Translations under genes and position numbers: made by a program
Notes under the pieces: generated by a model
Database searches by the model: none
The model's input: only the letters and a program-made list of their open reading frames with translations
Told to the model about the DNA's origin: nothing
NCBI GenBank assembly: GCA_009729775.1
Contig: GCA_009729775.1_4081.1
From: Escherichia coli
Lineage (GTDB): Bacteria; Pseudomonadota; Gammaproteobacteria; Enterobacterales; Enterobacteriaceae
Reading direction: 5' to 3' (one strand)
Length of the DNA: 64,000 bases
Shown: one piece after another, positions 9,208 to 49,144 of the stretch
How the letters are laid out: every line of letters starts with the position of its first letter
Position numbering within the stretch: position 1 is the first letter of the stretch

Positions 9208-9534
9208 TTACATTTTAATACCTGGATTCAGGTAGCGGTGAGATCCGTATTCTGGATCTGTTTCGGTCCAGTACTGTAAATCTATAGTACCCTTTGCGTT
9301 AATCTTGTCTACTAGCTTATTCATCTTAGTGTAGACTACTTCGCTAGGGATGTAGTGTAATCCTTTATTATAGAAGTAGTGGTTAGCTTCACTATCGTTT
9401 AAGATATAGCGTGCACCGTTTGCGGTTTGTGCAACAATGAAAGAGTATTCTACTTCCCGATCATTACCATCAACAGTAATGCGGTCGAAATTGGTACGGA
9501 TGAAAGCTTTAACGATAGCGATTGAAGTACTCAT
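9208..9534 (-). CDS. hypothetical early protein (108 aa)
   Basis: TAGGAGA RBS upstream of ATG. Confidence 0.65.
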   Translation of the reverse strand: MSTSIAIVKAFIRTNFDRITVDGNDREVEYSFIVAQTANGARYILNDSEANHYFYNKGLHYIPSEVVYTKMNKLVDKINAKGTIDLQYWTETDPEYGSHRYLNPGIKM

Positions 9535-9684
9535 GGTGAATCTCCTAACTTTGTGGGCCGTCGCACCATTGCCGCCCTACGAGATACATTATTGCAGTAC
9601 TGATATACTTTGTCAATACTTTTTTTGAAATAGTTTTGAGTACTGGAATTACATCCACCAGCAGATAGTTACTCACCGTTATGA

Positions 9685-9712
9685 ACTATCTTACAGATAC
9701 TTCTCTGCACCC
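9685..9712 (+). repeat. conserved 28-bp intergenic motif AGATAC...TGCACCCTGTGGGCTAG (copy 1)
   Basis: Read directly; same core in at least 8 intergenic sites. Confidence 0.7.
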
Positions 9713-9739
9713 TGTGGGCTAGTTTTTGTCTATGCGTAT

Positions 9740-9779
9740 ATAATAGCAAAGGGACTGACCGGAGTCAATCCCTTTTTTT
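9740..9779. terminator. stem-loop cassette GGGACTGACCGGAGTCAATCCC with flanking T-run; TTGACT box inside the stem
   Basis: Hairpin 9751-9772, T7 run on plus side; on minus strand TTGACT-N17-TATTAT promoter geometry. Confidence 0.55.
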
Positions 9780-9790
9780 ATTCTTTTTTG

Positions 9791-9991
9791 TTAGATGATT
9801 CTCCAATCTTCTACCAGGATTTTAATATACCGTACCAGTGATTCGAGTGATTCCACTTCCCGATAATCGGTAGCCGTTTGCACGGAACAAGTACAGCCGA
9901 TCAAGCCATTGCCAAGCTCTTTGATCTGTACATCGATGCAGTTGGCTTTTGCTTCATTCAGTACTGCAACCAATTCGTTAGCGATTGACAT
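9791..9991 (-). CDS. hypothetical early protein (66 aa)
   Basis: AGGAG RBS; ORF track. Confidence 0.6.
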   Translation of the reverse strand: MSIANELVAVLNEAKANCIDVQIKELGNGLIGCTCSVQTATDYREVESLESLVRYIKILVEDWRII

Positions 9992-11264: not shown

Positions 11265-11486
11265 TTAATTACGTTTAAAATGATATGTACCTTTATCATC
11301 CTGTACGCCCCATACTGATTTACCATCAACGCCAGTGAAGCCGGATTGCAATTCAATATGGAAACCATTATTATCAACTACAAAAACTTTTTTATTTTCA
11401 TCCCGATAACATTGATATTCTGAATCAACATTAAAGGCCGCATCATTCAGAAGATTGGAAGCGTAAATGCAAGTCATTGTAGTCAT
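11265..11486 (-). CDS. hypothetical early protein (73 aa)
   Basis: Start adjusted to MTTMTCIY... Confidence 0.6.
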   Translation of the reverse strand: MTTMTCIYASNLLNDAAFNVDSEYQCYRDENKKVFVVDNNGFHIELQSGFTGVDGKSVWGVQDDKGTYHFKRN

Positions 11487-11612
11487 GATTTTATTCCTTA
11501 TTCTTTGAGGGAGAACCATTTCCCCCTCTCGATATAAAACATTATACTTGATTCTAAGTACAATGCAAGTACTTTTTTAAAAATAGTTTTCAGTACTGAA
11601 TACTTATATAAT

Positions 11613-11640
11613 AGATACACTTCCGCACCCTATGGGTCAG
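11613..11640 (+). repeat. conserved 28-bp intergenic motif (copy 2)
   Basis: AGATACACTTCCGCACCCTATGGGTCAG. Confidence 0.7.
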
Positions 11641-11673
11641 TGAGTTATCTCTCAATGAATATATAATAGCAAA

Positions 11674-11701
11674 GGGACTGACTGGAGTCAATCCCTTTTT
11701 T
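11674..11701. terminator. stem-loop cassette GGGACTGACTGGAGTCAATCCC plus T-run
   Basis: Same cassette as 9740-9779. Confidence 0.55.
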
Positions 11702-11709
11702 AATCTTTT

Positions 11710-12294
11710 TTATCGTGTTATAGTTATCGCGTTAACATCACGTTTTTTATAGTACTGATTCCAGATATTGCGGGTTAAACCGTAATCAAGTACTTTAATC
11801 AAGCCGTTGCGATCCTGGCCGATATTCTGTTTTCTGATATCTCTTATCGTTAGTGTGGATAATGTATCATCAACGTGATTGAGAGCATCAGCGAAATGGT
11901 GATGGCGTTCAATAGTGTTACGTTTAATATTGTACTTTAACTCATTACATGCGGTTACGTGCTTTACACTGCCTTTGCTTGCAGTACTCAAACGATCCAT
12001 AACAATAAACAGATTATCAGGATCGCATAAATGCATATGCACCTTGGCAAAGAACTGTTTAAGGTGCGGACGGTCATAATCTAAAAAATTCCATACCTTA
12101 CATTCAGTTTCATTTTGTTCTACACCCGCATCACAATTCGCGACCTTAATCACTAACCGATCATTTAAAGCGAATACAATACGGGAAGAACCCGCACCGA
12201 CGATCTCCAGTCCAGCTAACCGACAAGCTGAAAGGATCTCTTTGTTGGTTTCCATTGCATGAAGTGAACGGATGAATTTAGTATAGTTACGCAT
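11710..12294 (-). CDS. putative protein-kinase-like protein (about 194 aa)
   Basis: Start adjusted to MRNYTKF... with AAGGAG RBS; GAGSSRIVF glycine-loop-like, VIKV lysine, DIRKQNIG catalytic-loop-like and LDYG (DFG-like) motifs. Confidence 0.4.
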   Translation of the reverse strand: MRNYTKFIRSLHAMETNKEILSACRLAGLEIVGAGSSRIVFALNDRLVIKVANCDAGVEQNETECKVWNFLDYDRPHLKQFFAKVHMHLCDPDNLFIVMDRLSTASKGSVKHVTACNELKYNIKRNTIERHHHFADALNHVDDTLSTLTIRDIRKQNIGQDRNGLIKVLDYGLTRNIWNQYYKKRDVNAITITR

Positions 12295-14723: not shown

Positions 14724-14888
14724 TCACTTACTCATATTAACAGGCTTAAACGGTGGCAATGTAAGATCATGCGGGGTTAAACTGTCATGCTTTGCCCACA
14801 TACCAGAATCCCTACGGAATAATACCTTATTGTTTTTTATACGATAAAAGTTACCATTATCAGTGTTTTTATACCATACCATTTTCAT
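14724..14888 (-). CDS. small protein (54 aa), not in ORF track
   Basis: Hand translation MKMVWYKNTDNGNFYRIKNNKVLFRRDSGMWAKHDSLTPHDLTLPPFKPVNMSK; AGGAG RBS. Confidence 0.45.
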   Translation of the reverse strand: MKMVWYKNTDNGNFYRIKNNKVLFRRDSGMWAKHDSLTPHDLTLPPFKPVNMSK

Positions 14889-14976
14889 TTACTCCTGGTT
14901 ATGTCGTTATTAAACATTATACGGGGTTATAGATAGTTTGCAATTAGTTTTTCAGTACTAGCCACCAGCATATAAT

Positions 14977-15004
14977 AGATACATTTATGCACCCTGTGGG
15001 CTGA
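14977..15004 (+). repeat. conserved 28-bp intergenic motif (copy 3)
   Basis: AGATACATTTATGCACCCTGTGGGCTGA. Confidence 0.7.
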
Positions 15005-15032
15005 TTTGTTTCTATGCGTATATAATAGCAAA

Positions 15033-15061
15033 GGGACTGACCGGAGTCAATCCCTTTTTTA
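15033..15061. terminator. stem-loop cassette GGGACTGACCGGAGTCAATCCC plus T-run
   Basis: Same cassette as 9740-9779. Confidence 0.55.
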
Positions 15062-15068
15062 ATTCTTT

Positions 15069-15218
15069 TTAAACTTGTTTTGGGTTGCGATATGTGATAG
15101 CGTTCGGGTACATTTGTTTAATGTTATTCCATGCCTGGTTAACATTGTAACCACTTGAGCGAATCAGTTGGTTACTACCGACACCTTGAAACACTACTTC
15201 GAATAAGAATTCTTTCAT
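15069..15218 (-). CDS. small protein (49 aa), not in ORF track
   Basis: Hand translation MKEFLFEVVFQGVGSNQLIR...; GAGGTGA RBS; ATGA overlap with upstream ORF. Confidence 0.45.
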   Translation of the reverse strand: MKEFLFEVVFQGVGSNQLIRSSGYNVNQAWNNIKQMYPNAITYRNPKQV

Positions 15219-18550: not shown

Positions 18551-18892
18551 TTATTCAAAATCTTCTGGACCGGACTGATAATCATCCTCACCGTATGCAC
18601 TTTCTAACTTCTCGCCAGTGTAATCATCAGTTAGTGAGTCATCCTCATAGTTCACGTCTACGCCCGTGATGTAAAACTGGCTATCGTCTGGATCATTGAA
18701 ATTAATTTTCTGAATGTTTACAATAACTGTATTGATACCCAGGACACAGCCATCAGCCGTTACAAAGTACTGATATTTTTCACATCCACCACTATTGAAA
18801 CCGTAATTGATTTCGGCCCGACCATCATTTAAACGCAGTGCCTGAGCGATGATTTCGTTTTCAAAGTTAGATTGAGCAATTGCAATAGTCAT
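18551..18892 (-). CDS. hypothetical acidic protein (113 aa)
   Basis: AAGGAAA RBS; acidic C-terminus. Confidence 0.6.
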   Translation of the reverse strand: MTIAIAQSNFENEIIAQALRLNDGRAEINYGFNSGGCEKYQYFVTADGCVLGINTVIVNIQKINFNDPDDSQFYITGVDVNYEDDSLTDDYTGEKLESAYGEDDYQSGPEDFE

Positions 18893-19025
18893 GATTCGTT
18901 TCCTTATTACCAGGGGAAACCGTTTCCCCTTGCGATGTAAAACATTATACGCCTATTGATATAGTTTGCAAGTACTTTTTATCAAATACTTTAAAATAGT
19001 TTTCAGTACTCAATCATTATACAAT

Positions 19026-19053
19026 AGATACACTTATGCACCCTGTGGGCTAG
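19026..19053 (+). repeat. conserved 28-bp intergenic motif (copy 5)
   Basis: AGATACACTTATGCACCCTGTGGGCTAG. Confidence 0.7.
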
Positions 19054-19087
19054 TGAGCTATCTCTCAATGAATACATAATAGCAAAA

Positions 19088-19115
19088 TGGCTGACCGAAG
19101 TCAACCACTTTTTTT
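19088..19115. terminator. stem-loop cassette GGCTGACCGAAGTCAACC plus T-run
   Basis: Variant of the cassette that recurs at 45-60 kb. Confidence 0.55.
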
Positions 19116-19252
19116 CATTTATTTTTAGCTTTTAGAATCGCCGCCTTTCGCGTCATGCCTTGCTTGATGTACTCCTTTACTTTCGCTTTACGTGCTTTCG
19201 CTTTATCTGCTTTCGTTTTAGGAGTACTGTAAATTAAACCGTTAGGATTCAT
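19115..19252 (-). CDS. small Lys/Ala-rich protein (45 aa), not in ORF track
   Basis: Hand translation MNPNGLIYSTPKTKADKAKARKAKVKEYIKQGMTRKAAILKAKNK. Confidence 0.4.
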   Translation of the reverse strand: MNPNGLIYSTPKTKADKAKARKAKVKEYIKQGMTRKAAILKAKNK

Positions 19253-45151: not shown

Positions 45152-45925
45152 TTAAATTTTCTCAAGGAACATATTATCTGCCATTGACTCCCAATCGTAT
45201 GGGAATTTATTATACAGACCAGCGATAAGTACTGGCATACGCAGAGAAGGTGAACGCAGCTTTTCTTCGTTGTTCAGCATCCAGTTTAAGATAGCTTTAC
45301 AACCATTTTTATTAACCCCATTGTTCTCAAGAATATTAGTCTTGTTCATGATGTTCTCAATGTGAATCATAACTTCTTCGTTAGTGAACAGTTGAAGATC
45401 AACAAAGATACTACGAGTAATCAGTGCATCAATGTGTGGTGCTAAACTGCTTTTACCTTTAGCAATCTGTGACAGGTTTTTGTTCGTCAGGAAGATTACC
45501 TTCCCACGGAATTCAAACTGCTTAGGAATACCCTGCTGTTCCAGGTACTTCCCAGAAGTTGCATAAGATACAACCCGCTTCTCTGAAGTATCCAGTACTG
45601 CTTTGAGCAAGTCAATGTTGGTTTCATCGCTGAAGATATCAACGTCATCAAGTAACAGTACTGATGCGGCATGACGTGAACGATACAGTGCTTCGTACAG
45701 ACCCATAGTGGTTACTTTACCGCTGATCTTTTTATAGTCGATTTCAAAGTTATCATCAGCTTTCTGTAAACGCTGGTCAACGTTATAAGTTTTACCAACG
45801 CCACCTTTACCAGATACAATCAGGGAATTGATTGAATTAGCTTGGGTATCAAGTAAACATTCCAAAGCTGCCATCATACTGTTGAAGTTCTTTTCGATTT
45901 GGATTGCTTTCTCTGTACGGGTCAT
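45152..45925 (-). CDS. P-loop NTPase (257 aa), deviant Walker A KGGVGKT
   Basis: SGKGGVGKTY Walker A, LLLDDVD Walker B-like, FLTN sensor-like; ParA/MinD-like or AAA-like, exact family not resolved. Confidence 0.55.
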   Translation of the reverse strand: MTRTEKAIQIEKNFNSMMAALECLLDTQANSINSLIVSGKGGVGKTYNVDQRLQKADDNFEIDYKKISGKVTTMGLYEALYRSRHAASVLLLDDVDIFSDETNIDLLKAVLDTSEKRVVSYATSGKYLEQQGIPKQFEFRGKVIFLTNKNLSQIAKGKSSLAPHIDALITRSIFVDLQLFTNEEVMIHIENIMNKTNILENNGVNKNGCKAILNWMLNNEEKLRSPSLRMPVLIAGLYNKFPYDWESMADNMFLEKI

Positions 45926-46341: not shown

Positions 46342-47481
46342 TTATAAAATGACTTCACCAAAAATACCATTGATATCACGTTCAATGATGTATTCACCTT
46401 CATGTTCAGCTAAGAACTTTTTAATGGCTTCGTTAACTTTAGGACGATGAATGTTGTTGAATGTTTCAGTGCAACCATCTCCCTTTTCATAATAACCTTT
46501 ATTATATAGTTTACCACATAACGCAATTGTATGTATTATTATTTCCAATTCTCTAGCAAGTTTCCCACCCACATTCTTATGAAATAAAATGGAAATTTCA
46601 TTACTCCAAAAATTATCTACTTTATATATTTTTTTATAAGATAAGTTTTGTGGACTTAATCTTGCTTTAATAGTTTTGTTTGTAATACCAGCTTTATCCG
46701 AATTTTTTGCATAATCATTGTGAATATAAAATCTTCCAGGCTTGGAAGTTTTAAATCCTTTTACTGCACACGTGGGACAACCAGAACCAGACAGATGTGA
46801 ATTTGGTGTTTGTTGAAATTCACCATGTTCTTTGCATATTATAATAGAGGTTACTTGGTTGTTAATGTAGTCATATAAAGAATAATCATACTTATTTCCG
46901 TGTATAAGATGTGATTTTTTTATAAATTCACCTAAAGTTTGTTTTAAAGTTTGTTTCGTGCATTCTTGACAACCAATTTTACCAGTAGCTAAGTCAGTAA
47001 TTGTGGGTTTTTTTATATCACCACAATCATTACATACTACTTCAATTTTAGTTCTACTAGGAAGTCTAGAGTTAAACGAAGTTATTCCACTATAAGTAAA
47101 TTTATCATAACCATATTTTTTGTTGATGACACTAATATGATTAATGGTGTAATATGGAATATTAATAATATTGTAAAAAATCTTACCATTAAATCCCTGC
47201 CTAATAAAATTCGTGCAGGTGGCTCCAATAACTAACATACCATCGTTATTCACTACAAGTTTGGTTTTTGATTTAGATATATAATCTTGTGATCTATTGA
47301 TATAGAATCCAAGAACTCTTGGATCATTTATTTCACCCATAATACTAATAGGATCTTGAGCAATGTTGGATTTTTTTACAAAATTTATATCTTCGGCTTT
47401 CATCCACTCAAAAAGCATTCCATGCTCTTCATAAAAATAAACTTTTTCACCATCTTCATTAAAATAGTACTGTTCAAACAT
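46342..47481 (-). CDS. Zn-ribbon protein with GIY-YIG-like segment, possible nuclease / homing-endonuclease-like (379 aa)
   Basis: Duplicated KYxYD...C-x2-C / GCPTC cysteine motifs and GRFYI-x10-AGIT-x6-R resembling GIY-YIG; function tentative. Confidence 0.35.
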   Translation of the reverse strand: MFEQYYFNEDGEKVYFYEEHGMLFEWMKAEDINFVKKSNIAQDPISIMGEINDPRVLGFYINRSQDYISKSKTKLVVNNDGMLVIGATCTNFIRQGFNGKIFYNIINIPYYTINHISVINKKYGYDKFTYSGITSFNSRLPSRTKIEVVCNDCGDIKKPTITDLATGKIGCQECTKQTLKQTLGEFIKKSHLIHGNKYDYSLYDYINNQVTSIIICKEHGEFQQTPNSHLSGSGCPTCAVKGFKTSKPGRFYIHNDYAKNSDKAGITNKTIKARLSPQNLSYKKIYKVDNFWSNEISILFHKNVGGKLARELEIIIHTIALCGKLYNKGYYEKGDGCTETFNNIHRPKVNEAIKKFLAEHEGEYIIERDINGIFGEVIL

Positions 47482-47734: not shown

Positions 47735-47767
47735 TAATTATAGCAAAAAGGGCTGACCGAAGTCAAC
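47735..47767 (-). terminator. dual terminator/promoter stem-loop cassette
   Basis: GGGTTGACttcgGTCAGCCC with UUCG loop, U-run, TTGACT in stem and TATAAT 18 nt downstream (minus strand). Confidence 0.6.
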
Positions 47768-47775
47768 CCTTTATG

Positions 47776-48135
47776 TTATTCTAAGTCACTCATAGTACTA
47801 ATAGTTAATCCCATTTCTTCTGCAATGTTGCATAGCAAACCAACAGCATTACGAAGAATATCAGTGTTGTCCACCGAGAATGATGAGTTTTCATTTACAG
47901 TTGAAGACTCAATGTAGTACTCAAAATAACGAGAAGTTGAACGCACAACTTTAACACCTTCATACTTCTGTAGTTCAGAGTTGACACGTTCGATGAGTAA
48001 ATCTTCCAGTGCTCGATAGTCACCATTCATTCCACGTTTCCACCCATCAGCAGGACGGAAATAAAAAGTTTTTGTACGTTGAATTGTTGAGATTGTTAGT
48101 GGGTTGTATTCCGCGATTTCACTTAAAGATGTCAT
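47776..48135 (-). CDS. hypothetical protein (119 aa)
   Basis: ORF track. Confidence 0.6.
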   Translation of the reverse strand: MTSLSEIAEYNPLTISTIQRTKTFYFRPADGWKRGMNGDYRALEDLLIERVNSELQKYEGVKVVRSTSRYFEYYIESSTVNENSSFSVDNTDILRNAVGLLCNIAEEMGLTISTMSDLE

Positions 48136-48241: not shown

Positions 48242-48436
48242 CTAATCCTCGCTGAAGACAACAATAAGGAATGACACGAACAATGCCGCATAACAAGGAG
48301 CTATCTTCATGTACCACGGGACTTCATAATACCATGTACCCAATTCATCCCACGAAAAGAGTATACTCAAACCGAAGCCGATTAGCGATAGTACAATAAA
48401 AGAAATCCAGAAACGCTTTGAATATACTAATAACAT
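48242..48436 (-). CDS. small membrane protein (64 aa)
   Basis: Two hydrophobic helices. Confidence 0.5.
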   Translation of the reverse strand: MLLVYSKRFWISFIVLSLIGFGLSILFSWDELGTWYYEVPWYMKIAPCYAALFVSFLIVVFSED

Positions 48437-48474
48437 ATTATGTTCCTTTGTGTGACCGAAGTCAATCCTTTCCT

Positions 48475-48990
48475 TTAATAATTATTCATTTCATCTTTGA
48501 TTTGTTCTTCAATTTCGTCAAACATATCAGTACTAGATTCTATATTACTACTTACGTTCTGCATATCTTTAACGTACTGTGGACATTCAACATCAGTAAA
48601 CTTATACCACGTAGGCTTCATCTGGAGCTTCTCAATCAAACGATCACGAGACATTTTAATCTCTGACTCCGTTGGTACGTAGTCATTACAAAACTCAGCA
48701 GGGAAGCCGCTAATGTCGTTTACTTCAGTGTTTTGAATCTTCATACCACGACGCAGACATTCGTTGACAATATCAATATGACGCTTCTGTAAGTACAGTA
48801 ACTTGTCGTAGAAAAATGTTACATGACCTGAACCTAACAGATAAGTACTGTTAATTTTGAAATCACGTACACGCTTACGTGCTTGAACGTGTTTTTGTAC
48901 AGCACCAAATACACGTGGGAGTTCACGATATTCAGCCATCAGATGTTGGTCAGCAAGTTCTTTAACGTGTACTAAGTTAATGCGTGTCAT
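48475..48990 (-). CDS. denV: endonuclease V (pyrimidine-dimer DNA glycosylase/AP lyase), T4 DenV homolog (171 aa)
   Basis: N-terminus [31 protein letters not shown]...KRVRDFKI...[10 protein letters not shown]...PTWYK is near-identical in pattern to T4 endonuclease V. Confidence 0.9.
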
Positions 48991-49018
48991 GTATTCATCC
49001 TCTCGTTTCGATGAAATG

Positions 49019-49051
49019 ATTATAGCAAAAAGGGCCGACTGAAGTCAACCC
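49019..49051 (-). terminator. dual terminator/promoter stem-loop cassette
   Basis: Hairpin GGGTTGACttcaGTCGGCCC, U-run, TTGACT-N18-TATAAT on minus strand, upstream of denV. Confidence 0.6.
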
Positions 49052-49144
49052 TTTTTTTCTTTCAATCAAACATAGTCTACCAGAATGTACCATGCGATGG
49101 TGATTAGAACAAAGAATCATACACTTCTTCATTGTTTAATCCAT

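Follow-up and report, generated by a model that had tools for sequence, protein, structure and literature searches.

An Asteriusvirus jumbo-phage homologue of T4 endonuclease V with an acidic C-terminal tail

T4 endonuclease V (DenV), whose glycosylase/AP lyase mechanism is established, is a textbook minimal DNA glycosylase; it is also the classic system for studying electrostatic sliding as a means of target search, and topical DNA-repair applications of it have been developed. Among other DNA-binding proteins, acidic C-terminal tails carried on flexible linkers are familiar from E. coli SSB, T7 gp2.5, T4 gp32 and HMGB1. A T4-type endonuclease V has been noted in a subset of jumbo phages (PMC7824862), and the literature mentions DenV for the subgroup 2.2 jumbo phages, CBB and Sharanji. 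Here we describe a DenV, encoded in a 64,000-nucleotide stretch of DNA (hereafter the window), in which a T4-like catalytic core is followed by an acidic tail, and we compare its gene and surroundings with those of T4 and of related jumbo phages (Table 1).

The window ORF had been recognized as a DenV homologue in a preliminary description of this DNA, and family profile, sequence, catalytic residues and fold all bear this out. The protein scores 54.8 bits (E=1.2e-14; cut-off 23) with Pfam family PF03013 (pyrimidine dimer DNA glycosylase, Pyr_excise), and the sequence of T4 endonuclease V (2END) aligns with it without gaps over residues 1-131 of each (E=2.5e-54); a tblastn comparison with the complete T4 genome puts its identity to the T4 gene at 64.9%. 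Over this core the two enzymes (PDB 2END and 1VAS for T4) are 65% identical and share Thr2, Glu23, Arg3, Arg22, Arg26, Arg117, Lys121 and the W-Y-K aromatic segment, with Trp128 and Tyr129; the window protein begins MTRINL, with a threonine directly after the initiator methionine, and alignment with T4 DenV finds the catalytic Thr2 and Glu23 both kept. In an alignment of 66 homologues Thr2, Glu23, Arg3, Arg22, Arg26, Arg117 and Tyr129 are invariant; Lys121 is nearly invariant both there and in a second alignment of 28 sequences, as is Trp128 in the latter. The aromatic C-terminal segment differs, reading WYKFT in the window DenV against WYKYY in T4, so that Tyr132 of the T4 segment is a threonine here and the fifth position is non-aromatic.

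Structural prediction agrees with these alignments. An AF2 model computed from the 66-homologue alignment has a mean pLDDT of 91, and Foldseek superposes its core on 2END with E=1.4e-16, a target-normalised TM of 0.94 and an rmsd of 1.2 Å over 133 columns, the same predicted fold as that of the T4 enzyme. Sequence and model together identify the ORF as a bona fide DenV, a member of the T4 endonuclease V family with a predicted compact, all-alpha fold. Because the catalytic residues are conserved and the fold matches, the protein very probably has CPD glycosylase/AP lyase activity and acts as T4 endonuclease V does. Once the initiator methionine had been removed, the alpha-amino group of Thr2 would attack C1' of the 5' pyrimidine of a cyclobutane dimer with the help of Glu23, forming a Schiff base that would be resolved by beta-elimination, with the kinked DNA gripped by Arg3, Arg22, Arg26, Arg117 and Lys121.

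The same gene had been taken to anchor the window to the T4-like phages, an attribution that fails when the rest of the window is considered. Just three of its 253 ORFs of at least 50 aa match the complete T4 genome (tblastn, E up to 1e-3)—DenV itself (65%), an nrdC.10-like ORF (40%) and a weak motB.2-like match—and the nearest records are all Asteriusvirus, which rules out a T4-like (Straboviridae) window. Escherichia phages 121Q (gene 217, YP_009101804.1) and SP27 encode an endonuclease V with 98.8% identity along the entire protein, the DenVs of some twenty further E. coli jumbo phages (347-384 kb) are 95-98% identical, and a 10-kb stretch around denV is 96-98% identical at the DNA level, in a mosaic pattern, to Asteriusvirus genomes (121Q, PBECO4, SHEFM2K and others); the 121Q record is itself classified as Asteriusvirus. 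By these sequence comparisons the window derives from an Asteriusvirus jumbo phage of the 121Q/PBECO4 group, whose genomes measure ~350 kb; its DenV is thus housed in a 350-kb Rak2-like jumbo phage, that of T4 in a member of the Straboviridae. Rak2-like phages are distant T4 relatives, with core proteins about 31-38% identical to those of T4 (PMC5259590). Sequence comparison makes DenV the most T4-like single gene in the window, and since almost all other ORFs there have no T4 match, it is a poor anchor for the identity of the whole. The gene is an ordinary one for its group and is already present, with its annotation, in database records such as that of 121Q (gene 217): the endonucleases V of 121Q and other Asteriusvirus share its length of 171 aa, its genomic neighbours and its promoter cassette, and are practically the same gene. 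The nrdC.10-like match is a 257-aa ORF (45152..45925, minus strand), 40% identical to T4 nrdC.10, with an AAA_16 signal that is weak and below the Pfam cut-off.

Table 1. Features of the denV locus and their positions in the window
Feature	Position	Strand	Basis
HNH homing-endonuclease gene scar, 87 nt	49057..49143	-	Comparison with relatives
Full upstream terminator/promoter cassette (predicted)	49019..49056	-	Consensus scan, folding, conservation in relatives
Shine-Dalgarno GAGAGGA, 7 nt upstream of denV ATG	48998..49004	-	Sequence reading; conserved in all aligned relatives
denV CDS	48475..48990	-	171 codons, ATG start, TAA stop at 48475-48477
Catalytic core, residues 1-131, T4 endonuclease V fold	48598..48990	-	2END alignment, homologue columns, AF2, Foldseek
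Proximal segment, residues 132-144, jumbo-phage-clade-specific, in place of T4 YGKAIYA	48559..48597	-	Present in 144-147 aa Rak2-like DenVs
Ser/Thr/Asn-rich variable-length linker, residues 145-157	48520..48558	-	Homologue alignment
Acidic amphipathic terminal motif, residues 158-171	48478..48519	-	Conservation and AF2 helix, pLDDT about 84
Degenerate downstream cassette copy	48437..48471	-	Consensus scan, folding
64-aa hydrophobic small ORF (orf64)	48242..48436	-	Found only together with tail-bearing denV allele
Next full terminator/promoter cassette	47737..47775	-	-18.9 kcal/mol, z=-6.3

The repeat AAAGG(G/A)TTGACTTC(A/G)GTC is present on both sides of denV, and the preliminary description had reported two bracketing stem-loops; of these the upstream one stands and the downstream one does not. 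Upstream, two arms (49027-49040 and 49043-49056) form a hairpin with the centre GGGTTGAC-TTCA-GTCGGCCC (in RNA, GGGUUGAC-UUCA-GUCGGCCC), followed by a T-run, UUUUU; it folds at -17.4 kcal/mol (z=-4.8). Its 5' arm contains a -35 box, TTGACT (49048-49043), separated by an 18-nt spacer from a TATAAT preceded by TG, the extended -10 element TGCTATAAT ending at 49019. Consensus scans and folding, on which all our promoter and terminator calls are based, predict an intrinsic terminator overlapping a near-consensus sigma-70 promoter. The downstream copy keeps AAAGGATTGACTTCGGTC, corresponding to the 5' arm and -35 box, and has lost the 3' arm and the T-run; it reads TTGACT-17-CATAAT, with an AAGGA Shine-Dalgarno sequence in the spacer and CATAAT abutting the ATG of the next ORF. 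It forms no hairpin (-3.2 kcal/mol, z=-0.6), 56 of 200 shuffled versions folding at least as well.

Neither copy is particular to denV. The window contains 11 matches to the motif AAAGGGTTGACTTC(A/G)GTC where chance would give 0.05, ten of them on the minus (coding) strand, and at least 11 full cassettes are found on the minus strand when listed with their flanks, all of them intergenic and each with its parts in the order stop codon, hairpin, T-run, -10 box, Shine-Dalgarno sequence and ATG. The upstream cassette occupies the same place before denV in all relatives examined, among them Xanthomonas phage XbC2 (genus Mimasvirus), whose hairpin has a GAGA loop. Because the XbC2 denV has this same architecture, the design appears to be conserved across genera of Rak2-like phages, and the sequences mark the cassette as a generic punctuation of the early region that combines terminator and early promoter and is standard in this phage. 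In the XbC2 locus (L010), the hairpin-plus-promoter arrangement associated with denV is seen at positions 1130-1175 and 1735-1775, with GAGA instead of a TTCG loop, and the denV stop codon overlaps a TTGACA -35 box. Elsewhere in the window, four leaders of 200-250 nt (9520-9800, 11440-11720, 14800-15080 and 18855-19135, minus strand) each combine a hairpin/promoter cassette with the conserved box AGCCCACAGGGTGCA, another promoter-like site (TTGCAA..TATAAT), a Shine-Dalgarno sequence and an ATG; three of the four also have a G-rich hairpin, GGGGGAAATGGTTCCCCC. None of these leaders matches Rfam at the gathering threshold, and a search of the window for known RNA families and tRNAs returned none.

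Beyond the upstream cassette, between it and the upstream gene, lies the remnant of an HNH homing-endonuclease gene in which the first 4 codons are fused to the last 20 or so (MKKC + ..ILCSNHHRMVHSGRLCLIERKK), the interior having been deleted; a called ORF of 45 aa (48995..49132, minus strand) starts inside it. At the same site phage UB has a long version, slurp01 and Turkey3 share the scar, and 121Q, PBECO4 and UE-S1 have nothing. It is plausible that homing-endonuclease activity beside denV drives gene-conversion tracts.

With this scar adjoining the gene, with the repeat on either flank, and with a DenV 65% identical to that of T4 where Rak2-like core proteins reach about 31-38% (PMC5259590), denV might be taken for a module that came recently from T4 and travelled as a cassette between two stem-loops; we judge this improbable, and the suggestion of module acquisition made from the bracketing cassettes is not sustained. 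The element recurs at least 11 times in the window, in intergenic positions, and also stands before denV in XbC2, and the downstream copy has no hairpin; since the cassette is generic and one of the two copies is not a stem-loop, the bracketing is no evidence of a mobile module, and we rejected the cassettes as module boundaries. When the locus is compared among relatives, denV occupies the same place in all Asteriusvirus genomes examined, which argues against acquisition as a module. Recent transfer from T4-like phages is likewise unsupported: in a tree built by neighbour-joining from an identity matrix with midpoint rooting, in itself weak evidence, jumbo-phage DenVs form a sister clade to those of the Straboviridae and are not nested among them, and T4 DenV is as far from that of the T4-like phage Muldoon (63%) as from that of the window (65%).

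The cassettes also suggest how denV may be expressed. Host sigma-70 RNA polymerase would read the gene early, from the promoter embedded in the terminator hairpin. Because the downstream cassette is unfolded and has no T-run, denV probably shares a transcript with the two ORFs that follow, of 64 and 119 aa, up to the next full cassette near 47.75 kb, which on sequence grounds is probably the end of a denV-orf64-orf119 transcription unit. The first of these ORFs, orf64, reads as a likely membrane protein with two helices; because its ATG lies immediately against what remains of the -10 box in the degenerate cassette, translation from the denV mRNA is probable. None of nine neighbouring ORFs, orf64 included, matches a Pfam family above cut-off. 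Two genes downstream of denV, a 379-aa ORF (46342..47481, minus strand) gives a weak treble-clef zinc-finger (DUF4379) signal and has counterparts annotated as endonucleases in relatives; it is possibly another homing-type nuclease.

The window DenV departs from that of T4 at its C terminus. T4 endonuclease V, at 138 aa, ends in the seven residues YGKAIYA; the window ORF is 33 aa longer, and in their place it has 40 residues past the T4 alignment, with 11 Asp/Glu, 2 Lys and a net charge of -9. Added to a core of +6, this stretch gives the whole protein a net charge of -3, making it acidic where the T4 enzyme is basic (+5). The acidic extension of the preliminary description (171 versus 138 aa) is therefore real, although part of what was counted as extra is not: residues 132-144 follow a pattern, ..TDVE.P.YY..M.., common to all DenVs of the jumbo-phage clade, in which 144-147 aa is the baseline length. 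Judged by these alignments, residues 132-144 are no addition, and the true addition comprises residues 145-171.

Among the best 120 full-length database matches, the scope within which we observed tail-bearing DenVs, the two parts of this addition behave differently. The linker is nearly absent from 158-aa forms (P0003 and P0004) and longer in 176- and 179-aa forms, so that over all forms it ranges from almost nothing to some 21 residues more, and it is poorly conserved (2-4 of 9 positions). The terminal motif, with the consensus [DE][IV]ExQIK[DE]EMNNY, is present in the 171-, 158-, 176- and 179-aa forms and in two genera, the bearer in Mimasvirus being XbC2; in the 158-aa forms it is identical, a 13-codon in-frame deletion having taken out the linker. 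Over the last 13 residues there are nine matches in P0008 and ten in P0009/XbC2, a motif identity of 69-77% that is close to the 79-80% by which the cores of these proteins match that of the window. F158, I161, I165 and M169, which line one face of the predicted helix, are either kept or exchanged only for similar residues (F to Y, I to V). The terminus of another long-tailed form, P0023, matches poorly, at 3 of 16 positions. AF2 predicts a helix over residues 138-169, with pLDDT values of 74-77 for the linker and 84 for the motif, a moderate level of confidence. The extension has three parts, a clade-conserved segment (132-144), a variable linker (145-157) and a conserved acidic amphipathic motif, predicted to be helical, at the terminus (158-171), and we read it as a tethered module.

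That the long ORF is an artefact, with a sequencing frameshift or read-through fusing denV to downstream sequence, seems extremely improbable: one other record (P0005) does show a gene fusion at the same junction, but the identical 171-codon frame is found in at least 19 independently sequenced phage genomes and in a cluster of 134 member sequences, and the tail motif is again in frame in phages of divergent genera. A six-frame regular-expression scan allowing up to 5 substitutions found the motif on no other window protein, and a tblastn search with the 25-aa tail against 50,697 phage records (E up to 10) returned only the DenVs of 19 Asteriusvirus, with a sensitivity low enough to miss XbC2. 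A search of the literature accessible to us turned up no account of the tail; in architecture the extension is a small, so far undescribed variation on the DenV family.

Tail-bearing and tail-less alleles are found in closely related phages, and their boundaries point to exchange. PBECO4, slurp01 and Turkey3 have alleles of 144-145 aa that, in a DNA alignment of the 3' ends, stay close to the window up to codon 135 and then diverge abruptly. In PBECO4 and slurp01, DenV ends ELPEYYRSMI-stop at 144 aa, orf64 is missing, and similarity to the window resumes at the promoter in front of the next conserved gene (47776..48135); in Turkey3 no such return is seen within the aligned stretch, and the genes downstream are different ones. 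The segment of the 121Q type, present in the window, adds the tail, the degenerate cassette and the 64-aa hydrophobic ORF (48242..48436). Like the other 144-aa DenVs (those of CBB and Rak2-group phages), those of PBECO4 and slurp01 belong to the same clade as the window DenV and share its core and proximal segment, but have neither the linker nor the terminal acidic motif. Because the proximal stretch is homologous between the two allele types as protein yet strongly diverged as DNA, the sequences indicate that the 3' end was replaced by a foreign allele rather than simply deleted.

The window denV itself joins both types. Over the 405 nt compared, it is exactly identical to slurp01 at nt 1-312 and to 121Q at nt 194-405; since identity to slurp01 ends at 312 and identity to 121Q starts at 194, the alignment identifies the gene as a recombinant of two allele types with a crossover within nt 194-312. 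Set against 121Q, the 5' two-thirds of the window gene and the upstream HNH scar are of slurp01 type, whereas the 3' end, tail and orf64 are of 121Q type. In Salmonella phage SD-2_S15 (P0005), an annotated endonuclease of 242 aa consists of denV residues 1-135 fused to a homologue of ORF 47776..48135, a deletion having removed the tail, orf64 and the intergenic region; as this fusion joins denV codons 1-135 to the next gene, the junction at the denV 3' end is unstable. The HNH scar upstream, the allelic replacement at the 3' end and the crossover inside denV make the locus, by its sequence, a recombinationally active one.

On the neighbour-joining tree, tail-bearing forms fall in four subclades, each beside sisters of 144-146 aa. 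Because the divergence of the motif (69-77% identity) is near that of the core (79-80%), we lean slightly towards a tail that was ancestral and has repeatedly been lost or replaced, with lateral transfer of 3' ends as a somewhat less likely alternative. Many close relatives have lost the tail, which is therefore not needed for phage viability, and the on/off polymorphism is maintained by recombination. Recombination between co-circulating jumbo phages would swap tail-bearing and tail-less alleles, and we take this exchange as a sign that the tail is dispensable.

Whether the tail does anything in the phages that carry it is harder to judge. It could be a functionless, tolerated by-product of recombination at the denV 3' end, a hotspot for the replacement, deletion or fusion of ends, persisting by hitch-hiking, and the scatter of lengths in the jumbo clade (144, 147, 153, 158, 164, 171, 173, 176, 179 and 181 aa), the unrelated tails of P0013 and P0018, the SD-2_S15 fusion of denV residues 1-135 to the next gene and the tail-less alleles in otherwise very similar Asteriusvirus genomes would all fit such a history. 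Yet over the terminal 13 residues the DenVs of the E. coli Asteriusvirus phages are 69-77% identical to P0008 or P0009/XbC2, next to a linker that is scrambled and variable in length, and the 158-aa forms lose 13 linker codons in frame and keep the motif exactly; a motif retained while its linker scrambles or is deleted is hard to obtain without selection on that motif, and we hold the functionless reading to be rather unlikely. The closeness of motif divergence to core divergence points to constraint on the motif, and a scrambled, variable linker ending in a conserved peptide looks like a tethered functional motif and not like random read-through. From sequence and model we lean, by a little, towards a selected accessory module.

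The reading that we prefer as a whole, and consider reasonably probable, is of a DenV with a dispensable, tethered three-part tail and an accessory terminal helix. That helix may serve as a docking or regulatory peptide: it could bind a partner protein, or it could fold back on the basic DNA-binding face and weaken non-specific DNA binding, two options that we rate about equal. The absence of the motif from other window proteins and phage records lends no support to a docking peptide shared between proteins. By analogy, the E. coli SSB tip, T7 gp2.5, the T4 gp32 C-domain and HMGB1 have a like architecture, a basic DNA-binding core followed by a poorly conserved linker of varying length and a short, conserved acidic end with hydrophobic anchors; there is no sequence relationship, and the window motif is a predicted amphipathic helix of 13-16 residues, not a DDDIPF-type tip. 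A more specific proposal, which we offer tentatively and hold at less than even, is that the terminal helix is a regulatory add-on—an intramolecular DNA mimic tuning the electrostatic sliding (processivity) of the enzyme along so large a genome, or a peptide whose docking couples dimer incision to a phage or host replication or repair factor—that recombination switches on and off across the population.

The main practical result is a corrected attribution, of the window to an Asteriusvirus jumbo phage and of the stem-loops to generic regulatory punctuation. For the enzyme family, a natural DenV subfamily with a conserved acidic tail, both alleles of which occur in otherwise very similar phages, provides a ready-made comparison: setting tail-bearing against tail-less forms could test whether charge tunes the target search of a viral base-excision enzyme, or whether the tail recruits a partner to it.
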